From Rotaria magnacalcarata (lineage: Eukaryota), in contig CBCSLL010000157.1 in the NCBI GenBank assembly GCA_965140935.1, forward strand, positions 33,416-97,415: a DNA stretch of 64,000 nt. Direction: 5' to 3'. Below are positions 11,490-58,482 of the stretch, piece after piece. The position numbers were made by a program, and so were the translations under genes. The number at the start of each line of letters is the position of its first letter. Positions within the stretch are counted from its first letter, which is position 1. Under the pieces are notes generated by a model. The model did not search any database, was not told the origin of the DNA, and saw only the letters and a list, made by a program, of their open reading frames with translations.

Positions 11490-12503
11490 ATGACTACATA
11501 TCCCATAATAGAGAACTTTACTTTATCTATTTCAAATATTTCAACTGAAATCTATCCTCTAATTAATTCAATTCGACCTGATTGGAATTCATCGAATACT
11601 CGTTTAGTAACTTTTACCGAGGGTTTAACAAATGTAATCGTAGGTCTTTTTGATAATAGAAATCCTGACGATGAATCTAAAACGTTGATTATTAAAATTT
11701 ATGGTGCTCAGACAGAATCGTTTATTGACCGAGAATCTGAAATCAATGCTATGAAAATATTATCCGAACAAGGTGTTTTCTCCCAACGTATTCTTATTCA
11801 ATTTAATAATGGAATCATATATGAATATGCATCAGGGCAAACATGTTCAAGAGAAAATGTAAGAAAAGAGAATATTGTACGTTTGATTGCGCTTAAACTT
11901 GCCCAAATGCATAATGTACCAGTTCAAAGAGCCGAAAAACCTTATATTATTATATCATTACGTCGATTTATTCAATTGCTTGATGGAAGTTCATTTGATT
12001 TATCTTCAATTCGATCAGATATTGATGCAATAGAAGAACGAATTCTTCCTAGTCTTATTCCAAATGCTGAATTAGGCAAAGATCTTGTATTATGTCACAA
12101 TGATTTACTTGTTAAAAATATAATTTATAACGAAAAAACGACAACAGTATCATTTATTGATTTTGAATATGCGCATTTTAATTATTCTTTATTTGATATT
12201 GCAAATCATTTTATTGAGTATGCTGGTGTTGATAATGCAGATTTTACTATATATCCAGGTCGAGAAGAACAAAAAAAATGGTTAGAAATCTATTTTCAAG
12301 CTCGTGGAATGAGTCAACAAATAATTGATGACGATCTATGTCATCTTGTTGACCAATTTTCGGCTTTAGCGCAGTTAATGTGGGGACTTTGGGGATTAGT
12401 TCAAGCTCGTATATCACAATTGAACTTTGATTATATAAATTATGCAAAAATGAGGCTAGACTGTTATGAAAATTTACGGTCAAAGCTTTTTGAAAAAGAA
12501 TAA
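11490..12503 (+). CDS. Choline/ethanolamine kinase (single coding exon, 337 aa)
   Basis: N-terminus IRPDW…FTEGLTNVIVG; Brenner phosphotransferase motif LVLCHNDLLVKNIIY; choline-kinase motif SFIDFEYAHFNY. ATG is preceded by ttttattttcag. Stop TAA at 12501-12503. Confidence 0.8.
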   Translation: MTTYPIIENFTLSISNISTEIYPLINSIRPDWNSSNTRLVTFTEGLTNVIVGLFDNRNPDDESKTLIIKIYGAQTESFIDRESEINAMKILSEQGVFSQRILIQFNNGIIYEYASGQTCSRENVRKENIVRLIALKLAQMHNVPVQRAEKPYIIISLRRFIQLLDGSSFDLSSIRSDIDAIEERILPSLIPNAELGKDLVLCHNDLLVKNIIYNEKTTTVSFIDFEYAHFNYSLFDIANHFIEYAGVDNADFTIYPGREEQKKWLEIYFQARGMSQQIIDDDLCHLVDQFSALAQLMWGLWGLVQARISQLNFDYINYAKMRLDCYENLRSKLFEKE

Positions 12504-12600: not shown

Positions 12601-13731
12601 ATGTCATCGGCACATATACATGTTGCTGATGATAACGACTTATTAGCATAAATGCTTAGCTATCTTCTTGTACGATTGATATTAAATAAATTGAGCAAAA
12701 GTCAAATAATAACCATTGGTCTATCAGGTGGTTCTCTTGTTGATTTACATGCATCCATGTTACCTCGTTTACGATTACCCTGGGCTCGTTTAAAGTTCTT
12801 TTTTGTTGATCAAAGATTTGTTCCATTTACATCAGACGATTCAACTTATGGAAATTATCAATCAAAATTATTTCGACAGTTACCACTTACTGAGAATAAT
12901 ATTATTAAAATAGATGCAAATTTAGAAATTGTTGAAGAATATGCCAAAGATTATCAAAATAAACTACAAGAAGCATTGAACGGTGAAGATAAGGCTAGAA
13001 GGCTTGCTTTATTTTTATCTAGATAATAAAAATTTGATTTATTTAGTCGTTTGATATTGTTCTTCTCGGTATGGGACCTGATGAACATCAGAGCTGCCAG
13101 CAGACCAGCAAGAAAAGATCGTTGAACTGAAGTGTCTAATTTTTCAAATCCAACAAATCTCAAAGCTTTGGATTGACAAATTATTTTAACTGCAGCTATT
13201 AGTTTCTATTTTCCTAACGATAATCGAAAAATAAGTTCTCCTACACAATAGAAAATTAATAAAAAAAAGCTATTCCACACAGAAGACGCAAATCAGGTCA
13301 CTAAATTAGAACTGATCTAGTCTGTTAGCCTGGTTTAATATAATATGAACGAATCATGCCAAACTACAGTTTCAAATTCATCTGGCCTGGCAGGCCGGCC
13401 TGCTGGCATCTCTGATGGACATGTTGCTAGTCTTTTCTCAAACTGTTAGGCTGTGAATATAAATTAAGGGCTTGTTGCTTTTGTGAAAAATCCATCTAAG
13501 CCACCAGCCGAGCGTGTTGCATTAACATTACATACAATAAATCGAGCAAAATATAAAATTGCTGTTATAACAGGTAAAACTAAATCAACTGCTATCAAAG
13601 AAGTATTAAGAGAAAAAATAAAACTTATCCGATTTCACAAATTAATAATCTTGTTTGATATCTTGATAAAGCTGCTGCTAAACATCTATAAGCACTTTCG
13701 AGTAATCTTCTATTTAGGTACCTATCAGTAA
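12601..13731 (+). pseudogene. PGLS: 6-phosphogluconolactonase (PGLS) locus carrying multiple disabling lesions
   Basis: GLSGGSL, FVDQRFVPF, DIVLLGMGPD, DGHVASLFSN and NPSKPPAERVALTL…VITGKTKSTAIKEVL align along human PGLS. The N-terminus MSSAHIHVADDNDLLA is cut by an in-frame TAA at 12649-12651, directly before the ATG at 12652. A probable GC-AG intron spans 12994-13046. The exon coding GMGPD|GHVASLF is split by a 326-bp TIR element. TAG at 13447 and TAA at 13465 lie between the DGHVASLFSN and NPSKPP segments, where only a 24-nt candidate intron is available. Confidence 0.6.
13089..13414. mobile_element. hAT-like MITE (~326 bp) inserted into the PGLS coding exon
   Basis: Terminal inverted repeats cagagctgccagcagaccagc and (reverse complement of the right end) cagagatgccagcaggccggc match at 18/21 and start with CAGAG, hAT-like. 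Flanking 8-bp direct repeats atgaacat (13081-13088) and atggacat (13415-13422). Removing the element and one TSD copy restores ggt atg gga cct gat gga cat gtt gct = GMGPDGHVA. The element carries a GGCCGGCC palindrome. Confidence 0.55.
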
Positions 13732-17925: not shown

Positions 17926-20060
17926 GAATATTAAATAATTTATTTAACAATTTAAATAATTTCTCTCAGTTTTAGAGCAGAAATTGAAAAGAGAAAACTC
18001 CGAGATAAATGCAGTAGGTAAAAAGAGCTTCTGTTACTACACGCACATATTGATATCCTTGATTGATTGATTTTCTTTAGAACTAGGACAAGCACGAGAT
18101 GTAAGTTGACAATTACATGTATTTATTGACTATTTTCATCCGATATTCAGACCTAGTATCGCTCGTTAAGTATATCAATCTATCCTCCTATTTGTTTTGT
18201 ACGATGAACCATTTTAATTTATATTAAATAATATAGATTTCAACTTTTGAATTTGCATTTTGTTTTAACAACTGATACTTTCAATACATTTTAATAGTAT
18301 ATACTAATGAACGACAATATTTAATGTGACGTTGTGCGTTCTTTTAACCTTAAAAAATTGTTCCCAATTACTTTTCCGAAAAATTTTCTTCCATTCGAAA
18401 ATAAAAATAAAATCACAAATAGAACATCAATTAAACAAATATCATTTGGTGAAGAATAAACACAGTGCATAGAAGTATAAATGAAAACAAAATATCTATT
18501 TGTATGCTAATACAAGTTATGACAGCTTTCTTTCAATAGATTGTATAACGATTTATGTCATTTCTGACTAAACAATTTTGAATAACTCGCATTCAAAAAA
18601 AACTGTTTTGGCTGCTTGTATTTGATACAAAACTACTTTGTACAGAAGAAAGATTACATTTCATATTTTCATATCAAATCAACTTCGATGATTATATTTA
18701 TTTCTTGTTGAAGAATTTGTTAGTTGATCAGGTGAACTATTCAGTGCCATGTGAGAAAAAGTAAGATGGATGTTTTAATAGGTCATCTTAAGTTCTTACG
18801 TGCAAATACAACAATGATTTTTAGTTGATGCGAATGTTCACGTTGAGATCTACTTACGAATGTTAGGTTGATAAAGATCGAAAAATGGAATGATTATATT
18901 AAAGCAAACAAATGTTCAAAATGACCAATCTCTATAATATATTCAAATGTTTAGCTAGTTTGAAAAAATGAAAAGTAAGTTCAAGAAGACTAAACAGATT
19001 AAATAAAGGTAACTTTTTTTAATTTAACAGAACGTTTTATTACGATTACAATTGCAATTACATCATTATATTGAACTGAACTTAAGCTAAATCTGGTAGT
19101 TTTTTTTATATGTTAACAAAGTAATAATTAAGAAAGTGTTTGAATATTGTCATAAAATAAAAAAATAAATAATATTCTGACCATCTAACTATGATGATCA
19201 TAGTAATCGGTATTTCTTATGGAATCTATTCATTCAACTAATAAAAAAAATGCTAGTAAATATATTGCAGTTACTTACTAAAAGGATTTATTTCATTCTT
19301 TACACTAGCGTTCCTTAAAATACTTCAAAAAATATATATGTAATGCTCGTGCTACTTTGTTTTCTCTGAAATAATTCAATAAATCAAAATAATAAAGTAA
19401 GACTGATAGCTTTGACGGTGCTAGACATTTATTTTTCTAACCTTAGTATCTTTTCAAGTTTCAAGTATGATATATATTCAAATACAGTGACATTATGTTT
19501 TTTTAAGTTTGACTTAACAATCTGGATTATAAATATTATTTATAGATCGATTTCAAAATTAGTTTGCAATATAGATTATATTAACATATGTACTTAATTA
19601 TCAGATGAGTAATAATATTATAGCTCTTTCTACGATTCGAGCAAGGACTACCATTGATAACATAGATATATAAACTCAGTCGAATATTTTTCTTTGTGAT
19701 TTATGGTCAGATTGAATTGAAAGAAAATACTCTTATGTTCGTGCACTCTCACTCTATGAATATTAAACCTTTAACCTGAGTAACTCTAAGTAAGAGCTGT
19801 TGAAAATTATAATATTGCTTTGAATAGAATAACATTTTAATGCGATTGCGCTAATATTCGAAAGTTTTTCTTTCGTTACAAATGATTTATCTCTAATACT
19901 GATCATGATTGTCTAAATAATCAATTTTATTCAAATGTATTATTTTTCAAAAATTCACATTTATCCTCGTTTTGAACATAAATGATACATCGGAAAGAAA
20001 AGCTTATGGGATTGTTTATATTTTAAATGGCCTCATCTATTGTTCTAACCAATTTGTCTC

Positions 20061-20792
20061 CTATTTGACAAATGGAATAGCTGGTGCTAAACTAAAATTG
20101 TTATCGTCTAAAATACTTTTCGCTTGCACTCCAGTCAAAAAATGAATAAGAATTCCATAGGGACGCACATATGTTGGATCGTTCACCACGTAATATTCGT
20201 TCTTTGAACATTCTGGTACTCGAATTTTTTTAGGATGAATTCGACATTGTAAAGCAACTTCAACATAGTAAGATTTATTATACTGAATTGGTTTCGTTAA
20301 TCGACAATGTTCAATATTATCTGTCAAATGTTTGATCTTGGGTGTTAAAAATACACCTTTTCCACATGTTTTTTGATTAAATATAGATGCATTCTGTCCT
20401 ATATCGACTGAGGTTGTACCCCATTCACTATGACTGCCTTGAAAAACTTTGAAACCCTCAAAGGCTATTGATTTCATTACTTCTAAAACATCACGTCGAA
20501 TTCCATGAAAGCCAACTGCCCATTCACCAGCAGCACCATCACAGGCAAGCCAATGTGCACCACTAGAGCCAAATTTGTCGATATTCAAACCATAGCGTAT
20601 CCAACCACGAAATGGAGTGTAATAGTCCCATTTACCACGGATCAATTTTATTGGTTCTTCATTACAATATCGAAGATCACCTTTCTTATCAAATAGATAA
20701 GATGGAAGTCCGAAAAAATTTGCTGGATTAAAGCTTTGAATGACACGTTCGAGATCATTTTCCGCCCAATTGTTAGTCGCCATTCTAAACAT
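20061..20792 (-). CDS. Standalone PARP-catalytic-domain-like ADP-ribosyltransferase, intronless, 243 aa
   Basis: AVGFHGI matches LFHGS; TCGKGVFLT matches GxGIYFA; SKNEYYVVNDPTYVRPYGILIH matches tankyrase AEYVIYRGEQAYPEYLITY. An in-frame stop lies 4 codons upstream of the ATG, so there is no N-terminal extension. Single exon. Confidence 0.65.
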   Translation of the reverse strand: MFRMATNNWAENDLERVIQSFNPANFFGLPSYLFDKKGDLRYCNEEPIKLIRGKWDYYTPFRGWIRYGLNIDKFGSSGAHWLACDGAAGEWAVGFHGIRRDVLEVMKSIAFEGFKVFQGSHSEWGTTSVDIGQNASIFNQKTCGKGVFLTPKIKHLTDNIEHCRLTKPIQYNKSYYVEVALQCRIHPKKIRVPECSKNEYYVVNDPTYVRPYGILIHFLTGVQAKSILDDNNFSLAPAIPFVK

Positions 20793-22717
20793 ACATTTAT
20801 GTTAATCAGATTAATTTAAATAATCGATTCGTCATGTAAGTACGCTTAATAAACATGTATAAAAATAGATTCGTTTGCTCTTATAAAGATTCTTCGTATT
20901 ATGAACAAATTAAATATTCTCTTAAAATAAATTCGTAGATGGTTAATAAATATTTCTCATCACTCATATATAATCTTTCAGATTTTATTTTCATTTTACA
21001 AATCTTCGATGAAAGTGTACTATTTACATTAAACTTCGAATATATTTTTTTATTTTATTTATTCTTCAATGACTCAGAAACTGTTTCTATGACGCCTATG
21101 AAGCTACTAAATTTTGAAAGACTTCAATATTTGATAGAGAATAATTTGATGTTTTAATCTTATCACGAAATAAAACGTTTAAATAGATGCTGTTCCATAG
21201 CTGTGTCGGTACTTACTCGTTCAATTCTAGGATGTCTCTATCACAAATCGTATTAATTCTTGATTAATGTTTATGGAGGAAAAATCATGCTATCATAAGA
21301 AAAAAGTATGTGTCATAGTTTTAAGTTGGAAAAAATCGAGAATATTTTTACTGTCACATGGAGTTCGCAAGTAACTATGAATTCTGAGTAGTAAGAAAAG
21401 AAATTAAAAAAATGAATGTCGTTTTACATTACATTGCATTTTAAGTTTGTTTTTCTTTAGTATACTTTCAATGAAGATTGAGAAATCATTCTCAAAAAGA
21501 ATTTTTACTAATTTACTTCCATGTCTGACTGTTGCACATGCCTGTTTTATTTTGTTGTGGGACATTTTCCGATTTCTCTTCATTTTATTTTCAAAAATTC
21601 TTCAATTCTGATGCTCCCCTTGCAGGCATAAAGGTATATATCAAAGTGTTATTCTATTTTATTGTGTATAAACTAGTCAATACAAAGAAAAATAAGTTCA
21701 AGAGTTAGAGATAAGTTGTAGAAGAATTTTAATATATTATCTAATAGAAAGAGAATTTCGCTTTTTTCTATCAGTATTCATTTTTTCAAGGGGAAACGGC
21801 GGATTTTGAACTTGAAGTAACATTGAATTACTTTCAGAGGTAAACTTCGAAGAATTTTTCGACTTCAGATTTACTCGTAGTTACTTGAAGTTATACCAAA
21901 GTTGCAAAGCTACTTGTTCTTATTTCGGACTACTTGAGTTGTATTTTTAGCTACTGCAAGCATGTACTTTGACCTACTTTTCTACTTCAAGTCCACCATT
22001 TTCCCCTTCCATTTTTTACATGATTAATTTCAACTTTACTGATTTACTCGAATATTTTAAATTGTCTATACAAATATTGTATAAAACTATTCATTAGTGG
22101 ATAATTAATTGATGATTCGATACAAGTCAATTTTATAAGCCCATTGTAGTTCGTATTCAAGTAACTTATAACTAAATAAAAATAGGAAATATAAACAATA
22201 ATTTTATTTCTCCAGTCTTACTAGAAATGTTTAATAAAATGCAAAAACTTTGCATCATACAGAATAAACTATGTAAACTATTAACTTTTTAACTATTGAA
22301 TACAAATAGTTTTCGATGTAGTGAAATACATAATATGCAGAACAATCGTATGATTCAATATGGTAATCTTTCTATGTGCTCGTCAATGATTATTTTCGAC
22401 AAAAAAATATATCGAAACTTCATTTTTAGCAGAGAATCAAAAATCATTTTCAAATTGTGTAATTCAGCAACATGATGAAAATGATAATGAAAATAAAGTA
22501 CGCAGTGCAAAACATGGAGGCTTTATCAAACATATTTTGTACAGTAATAAACAAATGAATGATTTTAATGATAATGCAAACATATGATTCATAAAATGAA
22601 TAGTTCGAAACACTCTTTAAAAATTAAAACACTAATTTAAATATTTTCATTCGTATAAAAGAATTGTACTTCGATTAGTATTGAAATTCGACAATAAAAA
22701 ACAAATTTCATTTTTAT

Positions 22718-48482: not shown

Positions 48483-50001
48483 TCATTGAAAATGTTTTGA
48501 AGAACATGAACTTCGATCAATATCAAATTTATCAATGCGGCCAGTACCATAATTTGAAACAAATATATTTCCATGTTGATCAAATGCTAAATCATTTGCT
48601 TGACTAAGTGTATATTGCTTTTCACCGATAATGATTGTACCATTGACACTATACCGTGTGAAATGCATAACTCTACTGTAATATCCATCAATAGAATAAA
48701 TATTACCCGATTGATCTAGATGAACTGCTCGAGGCCATCGCAACTTTCCTACAATAATTCCTTCTTTTGCATCTTCTGTCCATTTCATAATTCGATCATT
48801 AGATTGATCCGCTACGTATACAGTTCGATTTTGATCAACAAAAATAGCTGAAGGTTCATTGAATTGATCAAGTCGATTACCTTTACCGTTTCCACCAGCT
48901 ACTAGCCGATCATGCGCTATATTTTCTCCTAATATCCATCGTGTAACTCGATGATTATCATGTTCAGTAATATAAAGTAAAGCTTGGTTATCTAATGCTA
49001 AACCGGTACAGTATATATTATTGATTAGTATTTCTCCTTGTTGGGCACGCCTTGCCCATCGAATAATCCGTCGATTTCTTGCATCACATATAATTAAACT
49101 TCCATCTTTTGGGTCCATCAATATATCTGATACCTAATCAAATGTAATCTAGTTTTTGAACGAAGCTAACACTCCTTTTTCTTCTACTTACCCAACCAAG
49201 TTGATCAGTTCTATTTCCTTCCCCGTTACCTCCCGCTATAACATTTCCACGCTTAGCAGCTGGTTGCCACGTTACAATACGTGCGTTTCCATTATCAGAA
49301 ACATAGAGAGTATTTGTTTTCAAATCAAATACAATGGCAGTAGGACTTCGAAGTTGATCGAGTGCTGTACCACTATAGTTACTGCCAGCAACAGTTCTAC
49401 CCTGTTTAGCCCAGCTTACATTACGACAAACCACCTCAGCTGGTATCGGTGATAATGTAGATGAACCTATTCGATATCAAGGTAGAATGGAAAACATTTC
49501 GTTTCACTAGAAAATTATTTTTCTACTTGAATTTGTCTGCAATGGCGGACAAAGATCTAGTGCAGCCATACCAGTTGGATAACACAATGGTTGACCTATT
49601 GATAACTTTGGATGATGAATACAAACAGTATATGGTTGATCACAATAGTAATTTATTTCATTGCATGTTCTTAGTTTTGAAGCATTTAAATGAAGATATG
49701 CACAAATTCCACTTTGTTCACCTGCTGATGAAAACGGAAGACAGCCACAATCAGGATTAGTTGAACAAGGAGCATAGAGTGGTAAATTTCGACATGTTTG
49801 ACCTCTTGTCAAAACTAAATGAGACGAAATACAATAATCAAAATACAATTAGATAATTAGCAGTGTTATACCGAATAAGCTAAACCGTAATAAACAAAAA
49901 AAAATGAATAATTAAATAATTATTTTATGAAAATATTTACCTTTGTAATACAATGAATGCGATAGTAGAAGGAAGAAACATTCTATTAATCATTTTCATT
50001 C
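48483..50001 (-). CDS. Secreted NHL-repeat protein (six NHL blades) with a Cys-rich N-terminal domain; 4 coding exons, 420 aa
   Basis: Exons 49943-50001 (MKMINRMFLPSTIAFIVLQ signal peptide, donor GTAAAT), 49527-49804 (Cys-rich: GQTCRNLPLYAPCSTNPDCGCLPF…CDQPYTVCIHHP…LCPPLQTNS), 49192-49466, 48483-49133 (stop TGA). Phases sum to 1263 nt. Six units of the type AGGNGEGNRTDQLGWVSDILMDPKDGSLIICDARNRRIIRW and AGGNGKGNRLDQFNEPSAIFVDQNRTVYVADQSNDRIMKW. Confidence 0.75.
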
Positions 50002-56013: not shown

Positions 56014-58482
56014 CTAAACATTAATCATTAAGAAATTAAATGTTGAACGAATTTGAAAAATCTCTTTTTCTTTCATAGAAAATTTACCTTGAATGCTTTC
56101 ATCGATGACAGTCAACACATTTGATTTTGTTACATTTTTTGGTACAGTATGATCGAAATATAAAATCATTAATAATTCCTTTCGTAAATCATCATAATCG
56201 ATAATATTTTCAATATAATTTTCATTCATATCGCAATATTTCAACATATTTTTAATAACAACGGGCACACCGAAACTATTTTCATTATCAATAGTTTTTA
56301 AAATATTTTTAATATATTCAACTTCAGCTTCATGAGTGATTAATTTTCGATCTTTACCTGTGACTGTTTCTGGAATCAATTCGATTGGTTTACACATTTC
56401 ATCATGAAAATACTGAATGAAACTTTTTTCAACAAAATCAGGATCTTGCTGATTTATATCAATACCAATTGTGTCTTGATTACTTGCAACCGTTTTAACT
56501 CTTTGACTTTCATCACCATATAATAATCGTTCGATAATATTAATTTTGTCGGTAGGCAAATTTTGATGTAAATATCGTCGGAGATATTCATAATAGACTG
56601 GCATTAGAATAGTCTTTAAATCGCCTATTAAATATCCAATAATCAATGGAATACTTAAATCATATGTTCCATTTTGTCGTCCATGAATACTGCTAATAAA
56701 ATTTTTCAAGGTTTTTTCACCATACGCACTTTTGAAACCGATGGATTCAGTCACAATAAAATGACAGACTTTTTCGAATTCAGTTATCAAGTTTTTATTT
56801 CTTGTTGTACCAGTACGCAATATAATGATGTCATATAGTAGTTTAAGTAAACCAATTTCTTGTTCTTTATCATAACCATATGAATCTAAAGTAAACATAT
56901 ATCCTAACCAAATACCTTCTAAAATACGTATACGTTTCATGTGTTCATAATTAATATACAGTGGTATTACTGCATTGATTTTTTCATGTAATTGACCAAC
57001 TACACAATAGGTATCATTAATTCCAGCAAACAATCCGTAATTACTATCATCCGCTTGTTGTTGTTGTTGTTGTAATAATTGCTGTTGTGAATTTTTCGTC
57101 AAAGTCATTGCAGCAATAAATGAATCATATGAAATCAAGGTGTTTGACACACTAATCAATTTTAATCCTTTCGTTGGTGATGTAATGGCTTGTTCATTAC
57201 GTTCGATTAATATTCCTAAGCACATGATATTATCCGAAGTTTTTCTCATCATTTCATATATATCATCACTAGAATATGTACAAACCCAGTCAGATTTCTG
57301 TTCTTTTATTTTATTCCAACCTTCTTGATCTATATTTTTTCTATAACCCTCTAATATTCCACTAATATCTGTTTTCCGAAAATAATCAACATTTTTATTA
57401 ATACGTAAATCTAATTTTTTACGTCGCTGTGCATTAGCAAACGTAGCATCGTGTCTTAATGCACTCAGTTTTAATTTGACTTGTTCTGGAACTTGTCCCA
57501 TTTTAATTTGTGTAAATAATTTTGTGTATTCCATCATTCGTTCGTCAATTTCTTTTTTAATTTGCTCTAATTCTAATTTTTCCATAAGATCAGCACTTGC
57601 TGTTGGAATAATTGAATTTAAATATGTACGAATTTGGTGAACGGATTCTTCGTTATCTGGAGAAACTAAAGTTAATGCACGTATAACATGAATTGGGCGA
57701 ATAGGTTGCATAATTTGTAATGGAATTTTTGATTCACCATCCGGCGATTTAAATATAATTTCTTGAATTCTCGTATTATCAATCGTCATATTGTCAATTA
57801 AAAATCCAACTGTTTCTTCATTACTACTTGATGTATACGATTGTCCATTAATAACTATTGTAAATTCTCTAGCCGACATTGCATATTCAAACATATCGTT
57901 GAAATTGCTTTGTAATTCTGCTGATTGAGTTGAATATCGAAATAAACCTTCTTTTGTGCCAAATTTTCGAACTTGATCCAAAAAATTATTATTCACTTCA
58001 CCAAAGCCAATGACATGAAATATAATAATAATTGTTTTTGAGAGTCCACTGATTGATAATTTTAACATTTGAATAGCTCTTTTCAATGCATCTTGTGAAT
58101 CAGTATCTTGACCATCAGTCATAAAAATAAATGTGGTTGATTTTTGATTATTAACTAAATGATTTTGAATAGCAGTAAAGATTGAACTGAAACTAGTACC
58201 ACCATTTGCATCTAAATCTGTGTTCTCAACAGATTTTATTGTTTTTGTCGTGTCTGCCCTTGTATTATAAGTGAACAATGGATATTCAATTTTTGTACGT
58301 TGATAAATATCTTTTAAAACTGCACAAACATTACGAATAGGACTGCCGCTCATTGAGCCTGATACATCTACACAACAGATTATATTTTTGCCAGATGATG
58401 AATCGACTTTTGGTACTTTAACTTCGATGTAATGATGTTCACCACCACCAACAGTAAAAGGAGTTTTGAAATATGTAGCCAT
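56014..58482 (-). CDS. Intronless 822-aa protein with an N-terminal von Willebrand A domain (intact MIDAS motif) and a long uncharacterised C-terminal region
   Basis: MIDAS DxSxS = CCVDVSGSMSGSP; second metal-site motifs TSFSSIF and FMTDGQDTD. No signal peptide. An internal (CAA/TTG)n run encodes QQQLLQQQQQQ (~57054-57080). Longest uninterrupted ORF in the window. Confidence 0.7.
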   Translation of the reverse strand: MATYFKTPFTVGGGEHHYIEVKVPKVDSSSGKNIICCVDVSGSMSGSPIRNVCAVLKDIYQRTKIEYPLFTYNTRADTTKTIKSVENTDLDANGGTSFSSIFTAIQNHLVNNQKSTTFIFMTDGQDTDSQDALKRAIQMLKLSISGLSKTIIIIFHVIGFGEVNNNFLDQVRKFGTKEGLFRYSTQSAELQSNFNDMFEYAMSAREFTIVINGQSYTSSSNEETVGFLIDNMTIDNTRIQEIIFKSPDGESKIPLQIMQPIRPIHVIRALTLVSPDNEESVHQIRTYLNSIIPTASADLMEKLELEQIKKEIDERMMEYTKLFTQIKMGQVPEQVKLKLSALRHDATFANAQRRKKLDLRINKNVDYFRKTDISGILEGYRKNIDQEGWNKIKEQKSDWVCTYSSDDIYEMMRKTSDNIMCLGILIERNEQAITSPTKGLKLISVSNTLISYDSFIAAMTLTKNSQQQLLQQQQQQADDSNYGLFAGINDTYCVVGQLHEKINAVIPLYINYEHMKRIRILEGIWLGYMFTLDSYGYDKEQEIGLLKLLYDIIILRTGTTRNKNLITEFEKVCHFIVTESIGFKSAYGEKTLKNFISSIHGRQNGTYDLSIPLIIGYLIGDLKTILMPVYYEYLRRYLHQNLPTDKINIIERLLYGDESQRVKTVASNQDTIGIDINQQDPDFVEKSFIQYFHDEMCKPIELIPETVTGKDRKLITHEAEVEYIKNILKTIDNENSFGVPVVIKNMLKYCDMNENYIENIIDYDDLRKELLMILYFDHTVPKNVTKSNVLTVIDESIQGKFSMKEKEIFQIRSTFNFLMINV

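Follow-up and report, generated by a model that had tools for sequence, protein, structure and literature searches.

Does a bdelloid rotifer encode a PARP-type ADP-ribosyltransferase (ART) that consists of the catalytic domain alone, and can such a protein still act as an enzyme? The question is raised by an open reading frame (ORF) of 243 codons on the minus strand, at positions 20061-20792 of the DNA analysed here, a stretch of 64,000 nucleotides from Rotaria magnacalcarata (contig CBCSLL010000157.1, positions 33,416 to 97,415) that is called the window throughout. An initial annotation, made from the letters of the window, had described the product as a stand-alone, intronless ART with PARP catalytic motifs. 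The ORF was found in the ORF list and in the sequence of the window, and it contains the motifs FHG, GKGVF, NEYYVV and RPYGILI (R-P-Y-G-I-L-I from 20165 downwards) that had been pointed out. It is a real, conserved gene of bdelloid rotifers under purifying selection. Profile comparisons and a predicted structure indicate that its product, the window protein, is a very remote PARP relative made of essentially one PARP-type ART domain. That we are dealing with a PARP-fold homologue and a real gene is hardly in doubt. What is new is a divergent subfamily of the PARP fold, marked by an H-F-N-E/Q pocket, which lies inside a sizeable family that the Pfam PARP profile barely captures.

The window is AT-rich, with a GC content of 26-33%. 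At 30% GC about 8% of codons are expected to be stops, and the chance of a 243-codon open frame is about 1e-9 per start position, so the ORF is far beyond chance. Of the 28 close homologues returned by the protein database search, those of full length share 66-98% identity with the window protein. All the named homologues are from Rotaria or Adineta, and the remainder are metagenome proteins. The Rotaria socialis orthologue (P0001) has 240 residues and is 98% identical, with a synonymous divergence (dS) of 0.04 from the window gene; taken by themselves, these values place the window in R. socialis or a very near relative. Pairwise Nei-Gojobori comparison of the window gene, three Rotaria orthologues and the Adineta vaga orthologue gave ratios of nonsynonymous to synonymous divergence (dN/dS) of 0.16-0.30, and the GC content at third codon positions (GC3) was 0.18-0.23 across all orthologues compared, a host-like composition. 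Two remote members of the subfamily, P0030 and P0182, share 45-51% of their residues with the window protein, have about 230-245 residues and carry the same H-F-N-E/Q signature. A six-frame scan with hidden Markov models found no second copy of the gene in the window.

Single-exon gene models in four independent genome annotations, those of R. socialis, Rotaria sp. Silwood1, Rotaria sp. Silwood2 and A. vaga, all start at the methionine equivalent to 20783. The coding part was thus rightly called a single exon in the initial annotation, and the 243 codons are the length of the ORF, but the protein is likely to be shorter. The annotated orthologues and most metagenome relatives begin with MA(T/S/A) at the second ATG (20783), and the extra codons ATG-TTT-AGA overlap a conserved acceptor-like sequence, TTTAG|A. 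Because of these two observations, the product is probably a protein of 240 residues that starts at 20783. Its probable coding sequence occupies 20061..20783 (minus strand), begins with MATNNW and ends with a TAG stop. The first ATG and the following TTT AGA (20784..20792, minus strand) belong to the mechanical ORF and are probably untranslated; TTTAG of the acceptor-like sequence lies at 20789-20785. The in-frame stop that had been noted upstream is a TAA at 20802..20804 (minus strand), three codons before the first ATG and 7 codons upstream of the methionine at 20783. A candidate polyadenylation signal, AATAAA, is found at 19926..19931 (minus strand), 130 nt past the stop codon. Scanning the window for sigma-70 promoters and terminators gave background level only, which is irrelevant for a eukaryote.

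The relationship to PARPs was recognized through the relatives of the window protein. A phmmer search run exhaustively over 1.84 billion representatives found 549 relatives at E<=1e-3 (94 at E<=1e-10). With the family profile, 515 clusters were retrieved at E<=1e-8. The Pfam PARP profile PF00644 matches five of the 34 family members that were aligned. Among the family members, P0089 matches PF00644 with 31 bits (E 2.2e-7), above the gathering score of 26.7, and it matches the window protein with E 1.8e-12. When the family profile was aligned by hhalign with the catalytic domains of five human PARPs (PARP1, TNKS2, PARP10, PARP14 and PARP15; the references matched PDB chains along their full length with about 2.2 bits per residue), the probability was 90% and the E-value 1.7e-6. 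An AlphaFold2 model built from 34 sequences reached a predicted local distance difference test (pLDDT) score of 84 and a predicted template modelling (pTM) score of 0.84. The top 50 Foldseek matches of this model were all PARPs, with 9-17% identity to the matched chains, which places the fold nearest to PARPs among all ARTs.

Two results speak against the PARP assignment. The window protein itself has no match at E<=10 in Pfam, NCBIfam or the PDB sequences, and the Foldseek scores are modest, with template modelling (TM) scores of 0.3-0.4 and a best E-value of 1.8e-3. The assignment stands despite the empty direct searches, because the relatives, the members matching PF00644, the hhalign comparison and the AlphaFold2 and Foldseek results agree. 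A PARP profile match, as asked of the protein in the initial annotation, is thus absent for the window protein itself and present for its relatives, whereas the resemblance to tankyrase-like motifs at the sequence level and the stand-alone PARP-type fold without WGR, helical-regulatory, ankyrin or zinc-finger modules are as had been proposed. When P0089 alone was searched against the PDB, the only matches were chance ones, to eIF2B-gamma, and the family profile gave only a non-significant match to Tpt1 among the PDB sequences. The tRNA 2'-phosphotransferases (Tpt1/KptA) were considered as the family of the window protein and rejected, as they did not combine a profile match with the closest fold. 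The R-S-E ARTs (cholera-toxin-like or ecto-ART, PF01129) were also rejected, as the R-S-E motif together with the closest fold was not found.

The PARP-like ART domain covers residues 29-219 in the numbering of the 243-residue ORF (20136..20708; all features of the gene are on the minus strand). In the hhalign alignment, H96-G97 of the F-H96-G97 motif (20502..20507) takes the place of PARP1 H862-G863, the His-Gly pair that anchors NAD+ (nicotinamide adenine dinucleotide). The H-G of the H-G-[ST] motif is thus present, and the third residue is Ile or Leu in place of Ser/Thr. The next motif, G144-K-G-V-F148 (20349..20363), aligns with PARP1 G892-K-G-I-Y896, so that the tyrosine of the catalytic triad is replaced by phenylalanine. 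Both assignments had been made in the initial annotation. Between these motifs, residues 98-143 (20364..20501) form a loop at the position of the PARP donor loop (D-loop). The histidine and GKG stand 48 residues apart, 18 more than the 30 of human PARP1, in line with the unusually long segment of about 50 residues that had been noted. In the model this loop is less confident, with mean pLDDT values of 63-77 over 10-residue blocks. N159 (20316..20318) falls in the hhalign column of PARP1 Y907, the second tyrosine that stacks on nicotinamide. N198-E199-Y-Y-V-V (20184..20201) is the putative equivalent of N987-E988-Y-I-V-Y, the strand with the catalytic glutamate of PARP1. The last beta-strand begins with R210-P211-Y212 of IRPYGIL (20157..20165), the most conserved motif of the family. 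It is followed by a C-terminal tail specific to the rotifer subfamily (20064..20135), which in the alignment consists of a helix and a conserved PAIPF motif; in the model, a helix at residues 218-227 is followed by a region of low confidence.

The residues at these positions were counted in 180 non-rotifer members and in the 31-sequence rotifer stand-alone subfamily, from which P0030 and P0182 were left out; the denominators differ per column. In the H862 column, histidine is found in 150/171 non-rotifer members and 27/27 sequences of the rotifer subfamily. The Y896 column holds tyrosine in 139/166 non-rotifer members and phenylalanine in 28/29 rotifer sequences, and the Y907 column holds tyrosine in 126/164 and asparagine in 27/29, respectively. 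In the E988 column, the non-rotifer members have D (43), E (36), N (17) or Q (10), and the rotifer subfamily has E (19) or Q (9, including both named Adineta orthologues). The wider family thus keeps H-Y-Y-[D/E], whereas the rotifer stand-alone subfamily is fixed for H-F-N-[E/Q]. The alignments indicate that the rotifer subfamily has remodelled its nicotinamide pocket and lengthened its D-loop under purifying selection, and the remodelling appears specific to this subfamily because the wider family keeps tyrosine at both positions. The IRPY columns are conserved across the non-rotifer members (R 167/168, P 158/168, Y 161/168), and in the family alignment (A2) R210 and Y212 are invariant and P211 is nearly so.

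What would such a pocket do? Tentatively, we consider the window protein an active mono-ART with a remodelled nicotinamide pocket. NAD+ would be bound in a PARP-type donor site, in which H96-G97 would hold the ribose and the amide group of nicotinamide in place and F148 would stack on the nicotinamide. E199, which is glutamine in Adineta, would stabilize the oxocarbenium, and a single ADP-ribose would be moved to an acceptor, giving mono-ADP-ribosylation. A working site is favoured because the His-Gly pair is strictly kept and the third position is limited to E or Q. Poly-ADP-ribosylation of the PARP1/tankyrase type is unlikely judging from the sequence, because regulatory and acceptor modules are lacking and the orthologues tolerate the change from E to Q.

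Global hhalign did not bridge the variable insert before the glutamate strand. Several observations count against this reading. The ungapped register that sets E199 on E988, NEYYVVNDPTYVRPYGILIHF, is the best local profile alignment and is not significant alone (E 0.44); the glutamate assignment of the initial annotation agrees with this register and is weakly supported. Both tyrosines that stack on nicotinamide are replaced in the rotifer subfamily and the glutamate is Gln in 9/28 sequences, which is the pattern of a pseudo-enzyme. Moreover, the residues most conserved across the family of roughly 550 relatives are R52-G53, Y57, P60, W81, E90-W91, R184, P187 and R210-P-Y212, and the H-Y-E positions are not among them. 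Given the two tyrosine replacements (Y to F and Y to N) and the longer D-loop, the activity may be weak, redirected or lost, and enzyme activity of the window protein is doubtful from its residues. The conserved non-catalytic residues may mark a family-specific binding surface.

A close rival to the mono-ART reading is that the window protein is a pseudo-enzyme, which would retain the PARP fold as a module for binding or scaffolding, with NAD+, ADP-ribose, protein or nucleic acid as the partner, and would have no transferase activity. This is quite possible, though we would not call it probable. It is favoured because both tyrosine hydroxyls or rings are lost, at positions where the wider family keeps tyrosine, and the D-loop length and the fact that residues other than the catalytic ones are the most conserved point in the same direction. 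On the other hand, the strict retention of His-Gly in 27/27 sequences is not what this reading favours, and phenylalanine can still stack on nicotinamide. In all 28 sequences the third position is E or Q, which suggests a constraint on the side chain. Loss of the glutamate is also compatible with activity, since mono-ART PARPs with H-Y-I/L/Y triads are active without it. For the explanation as a whole, with an active mono-ART as its functional part, we are reasonably confident, and this is a compromise between the weight given to homology and a real gene and that given to activity.

How the gene came to the bdelloids is a separate matter. Horizontal acquisition by an ancestral bdelloid from a protist carrying the larger family is compatible with either functional reading, and we regard it as plausible but less likely than not. 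Among named sequences, only those of Rotaria and Adineta were found in a database with NCBI nr and UniRef among its sources; the other relatives carry no taxonomic labels, and other animals are possible among them. Hundreds of these relatives, and most of the non-rotifer members, lie on AT-rich, eukaryotic (protist-like) contigs and encode K/N/E/I-rich proteins, and on long contigs their neighbours are eukaryotic genes such as kinases, dynamin, copine and polycystin/REJ. Bdelloids are known for massive horizontal transfer, reportedly documented by Gladyshev et al. 2008 (which is among the references of PMC3417536), but the composition of the gene is fully host-like in all orthologues. Any transfer would be old because Adineta and Rotaria share the gene and A. 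vaga holds a second family member, P0185 (UJR19776.1), a protein of 523 residues with the canonical H-Y-Y-E set. Vertical descent, with losses in other lineages, would explain the pattern just as well. A scan with the motif [DNH]IRPYGI[LC]..., whose sensitivity is restricted to that motif, confirmed no prokaryotic or viral relative in 185,579 GTDB species genomes or in IMG/VR, and there is no evidence from motif scans for a prokaryotic origin of the window gene.

It is improbable, in our view, that the remodelled H-F-N-E/Q pocket and the enlarged D-loop support a non-canonical chemistry, with another nucleotide donor or with a nucleic acid or small molecule as the acceptor, and do not reflect a lost function. 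The rotifer protein would then be the animal branch of an essentially undescribed PARP-related clade that counts hundreds of members in AT-rich protists, and an ancestral bdelloid would have acquired it horizontally.

The 5' end of the gene bears on the weakest alternative, in which the ORF would be either the final exon of a larger gene with introns or a fragment retro-copied from a multi-domain PARP. The sequence (T)nTTTAG|A stands directly before the ATG at five bdelloid loci, namely the window, R. socialis (L001), L008, Rotaria sp. Silwood1 (L011) and A. vaga (L010), whereas the remaining upstream sequence has diverged. The stretches compared were 20784-20792 (minus strand) in the window, 9921-10000 in L001 and 7921-8000 in L008, L010 and L011. 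According to a passage that cites Pouchkina-Stantcheva and Tunnacliffe (2005), over half of the transcripts in bdelloids carry a trans-spliced leader of 23 nt (PMC1925144). Because a conserved acceptor-like TTTAG|A coincides with frequent spliced leaders in bdelloids, trans-splicing of a spliced leader is the simplest reading. TTTAG|A is probably a trans-splice acceptor, or the acceptor of an intron in the 5' untranslated region (UTR), leaving a one-base 5' UTR, and the coding part is one exon although the 5' end of the mRNA is probably spliced or trans-spliced. Trans-splicing would make an upstream coding exon less likely. A last exon or a retrocopy is very improbable: the acceptor-like sequence upstream of the ATG, and the C-terminal position of the domain in longer proteins in most family members elsewhere, are set against gene models that all begin at the methionine at 20783 in four bdelloid assemblies, conservation of this methionine in all orthologues, the similar length of the remote P0030 and P0182, the in-frame stop 7 codons upstream and an acceptor explained by trans-splicing, while the retro-copied enzyme of the initial annotation finds no support in a closest paralogue, among those found in rotifers, of only 26% identity, which leaves no recent parent gene, in a 3' end with no poly-A tract after it, or in a gene old enough to be common to Adineta and Rotaria.

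The family to which the rotifer protein belongs is, from the profile searches, large and only marginally captured by Pfam PARP. Its consensus is RGGxxYYxPxGWxRxGLxV...WL...EWAVAYHG...CGxGVYxxP...Y...QCRVxPxxIRxP...[DE]YWxVN...IRPYGILxK. In 130/154 non-rotifer members the domain ends <=15 residues from the C-terminus, in proteins of 200-990 residues. The N-terminal regions of the long members contain no Pfam domains and are K/N/E/I-rich in composition. P0210 (L007, 24-1640) has two tandem PARP-like domains and the N-terminus MGACDSS. Several other members also start with MG(x)C, which resembles an N-myristoylation/palmitoylation signal and would suggest membrane anchoring. P0157, an environmental protein of 935 residues, combines a B-box zinc finger with a degenerate copy of the domain (His replaced by Tyr, Lys at the third position) and a C-terminal R-S-E ART (PF01129), so that two ART folds are present in one protein. 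Many non-rotifer members, as seen in the clusters of P0279, P0323, P0318 and P0303, recur as over 100 almost identical copies, on contigs that measure 1.6-1.9 kb and barely exceed the gene length. Such recurrent short contigs fit an abundant AT-rich protist with the standard genetic code, as its transcripts or as gene-sized chromosomes. Telomere repeats were not found at the ends of contigs L005 and L007.

The neighbours of the gene in the window are ordinary eukaryotic genes. A single-exon choline/ethanolamine kinase of 337 residues (11490-12503, plus strand) is followed by a 6-phosphogluconolactonase/glucosamine-6-phosphate (GlcN6P) isomerase-like fragment (12652-13026, plus strand). The same pair flanks the R. 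socialis orthologue (L001), with a Mutator-like element (MULE) transposase gene just beyond. An ORF of 212 residues with NHL/beta-propeller repeats (48483-49121, minus strand) is probably one exon of a larger gene. An uninterrupted ORF of 822 residues (56014-58482, minus strand) encodes an N-terminal VWA/CoxE-like VWA domain and about 600 residues with no Pfam match. In Rotaria sp. Silwood1 (L011), a gene some 6 kb upstream of the orthologue encodes a product of 953 residues with faint VWA matches.

PARP censuses rest on the Pfam PARP profile, for example those of Citarelli 2010 (PMC2964712) and Perina 2014 (PMC4245714). A family of more than 500 sequence clusters was probably missed by such censuses, because the window protein has no PF00644 match and just 5 of the 34 members scanned have one. 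The rotifer subfamily is a natural experiment, in which a domain-only PARP fold is under purifying selection with both stacking tyrosines replaced. An answer on whether the rotifer protein still binds or uses NAD+ would help to establish what a PARP donor site needs as a minimum, and would reveal whether bdelloids, which tolerate DNA damage and carry foreign genes, employ an unusual ADP-ribosylation enzyme. If the protein is a vertically inherited pseudo-enzyme, the finding would be a modest addition to the catalogue.

Compared with PARP1 and tankyrase, which have the full H-Y-E triad, the window protein shares H and E at the aligned positions. It has no WGR, helical, zinc-finger, ankyrin or SAM module in Pfam or NCBIfam searches, and its 240 residues comprise the ART domain and short tails. 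With these modules absent, F in place of Y and the third position varying between E and Q, it does not belong to PARP1/2/3 or the tankyrases, and the E to Q change in the Adineta orthologues is incompatible with an obligatory elongation chemistry. The 'Clade 3D' orphan PARPs of the ciliate Tetrahymena (Citarelli et al. 2010, PMC2964712) have a PARP domain at the C-terminus as their only domain, and the third residue of their triad varies; both features are found in the window family. Their sequences are of the ordinary mono-PARP type (KIERIQN, LFHGT, YGRGTYFH, YIVYHNSKAYPYYLI) and carry no signature of the window family, and they were rejected as the same family. The NEURL4-like ART is a eukaryotic, PARP-related domain with a non-canonical H-Y-[EDQ] triad at the protein C-terminus (de Souza & Aravind 2012; Cardamone et al. 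2022, PMC8932523). The window family resembles it by description, in having an H-Y-[EDQ] PARP-related domain at the C-terminus, and no neuralized (NHR) repeats were found in the long family members scanned.

The mono-ADP-ribosylating PARPs of the ARTD family (human PARP16, PARP10, PARP14/15 and the ART domain of PARP4; PF00644) share with the window protein the aligned His-Gly, the G-x-G-x-[YF] motif and a C-terminal strand motif of the NEY-VV...Y-I-L type, and both are without a helical regulatory domain. The window protein differs from them in its identity of only 9-17%, its lack of a direct Pfam match and the absence of any accessory domain. The family as a whole is set apart by the N-terminal hairpin and strand motifs RGGxxYYxP, GWxRxGLxV and EWAVxxHG and by IRPYGIL, and the window protein in addition by Phe for the triad tyrosine, Asn for the second tyrosine and a D-loop that exceeds the PARP1 loop by about 18 residues. 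The inactive PARP domains of PARP13/ZAP, the TASOR pseudo-PARP and plant RCD1/SRO1 are similar in that canonical residues of the NAD+ pocket are lost while the fold is retained. In these proteins the histidine is lost and/or the cleft is closed. In the rotifer subfamily, in contrast, the His-Gly pair is invariant and Glu or Gln is kept at the third position.

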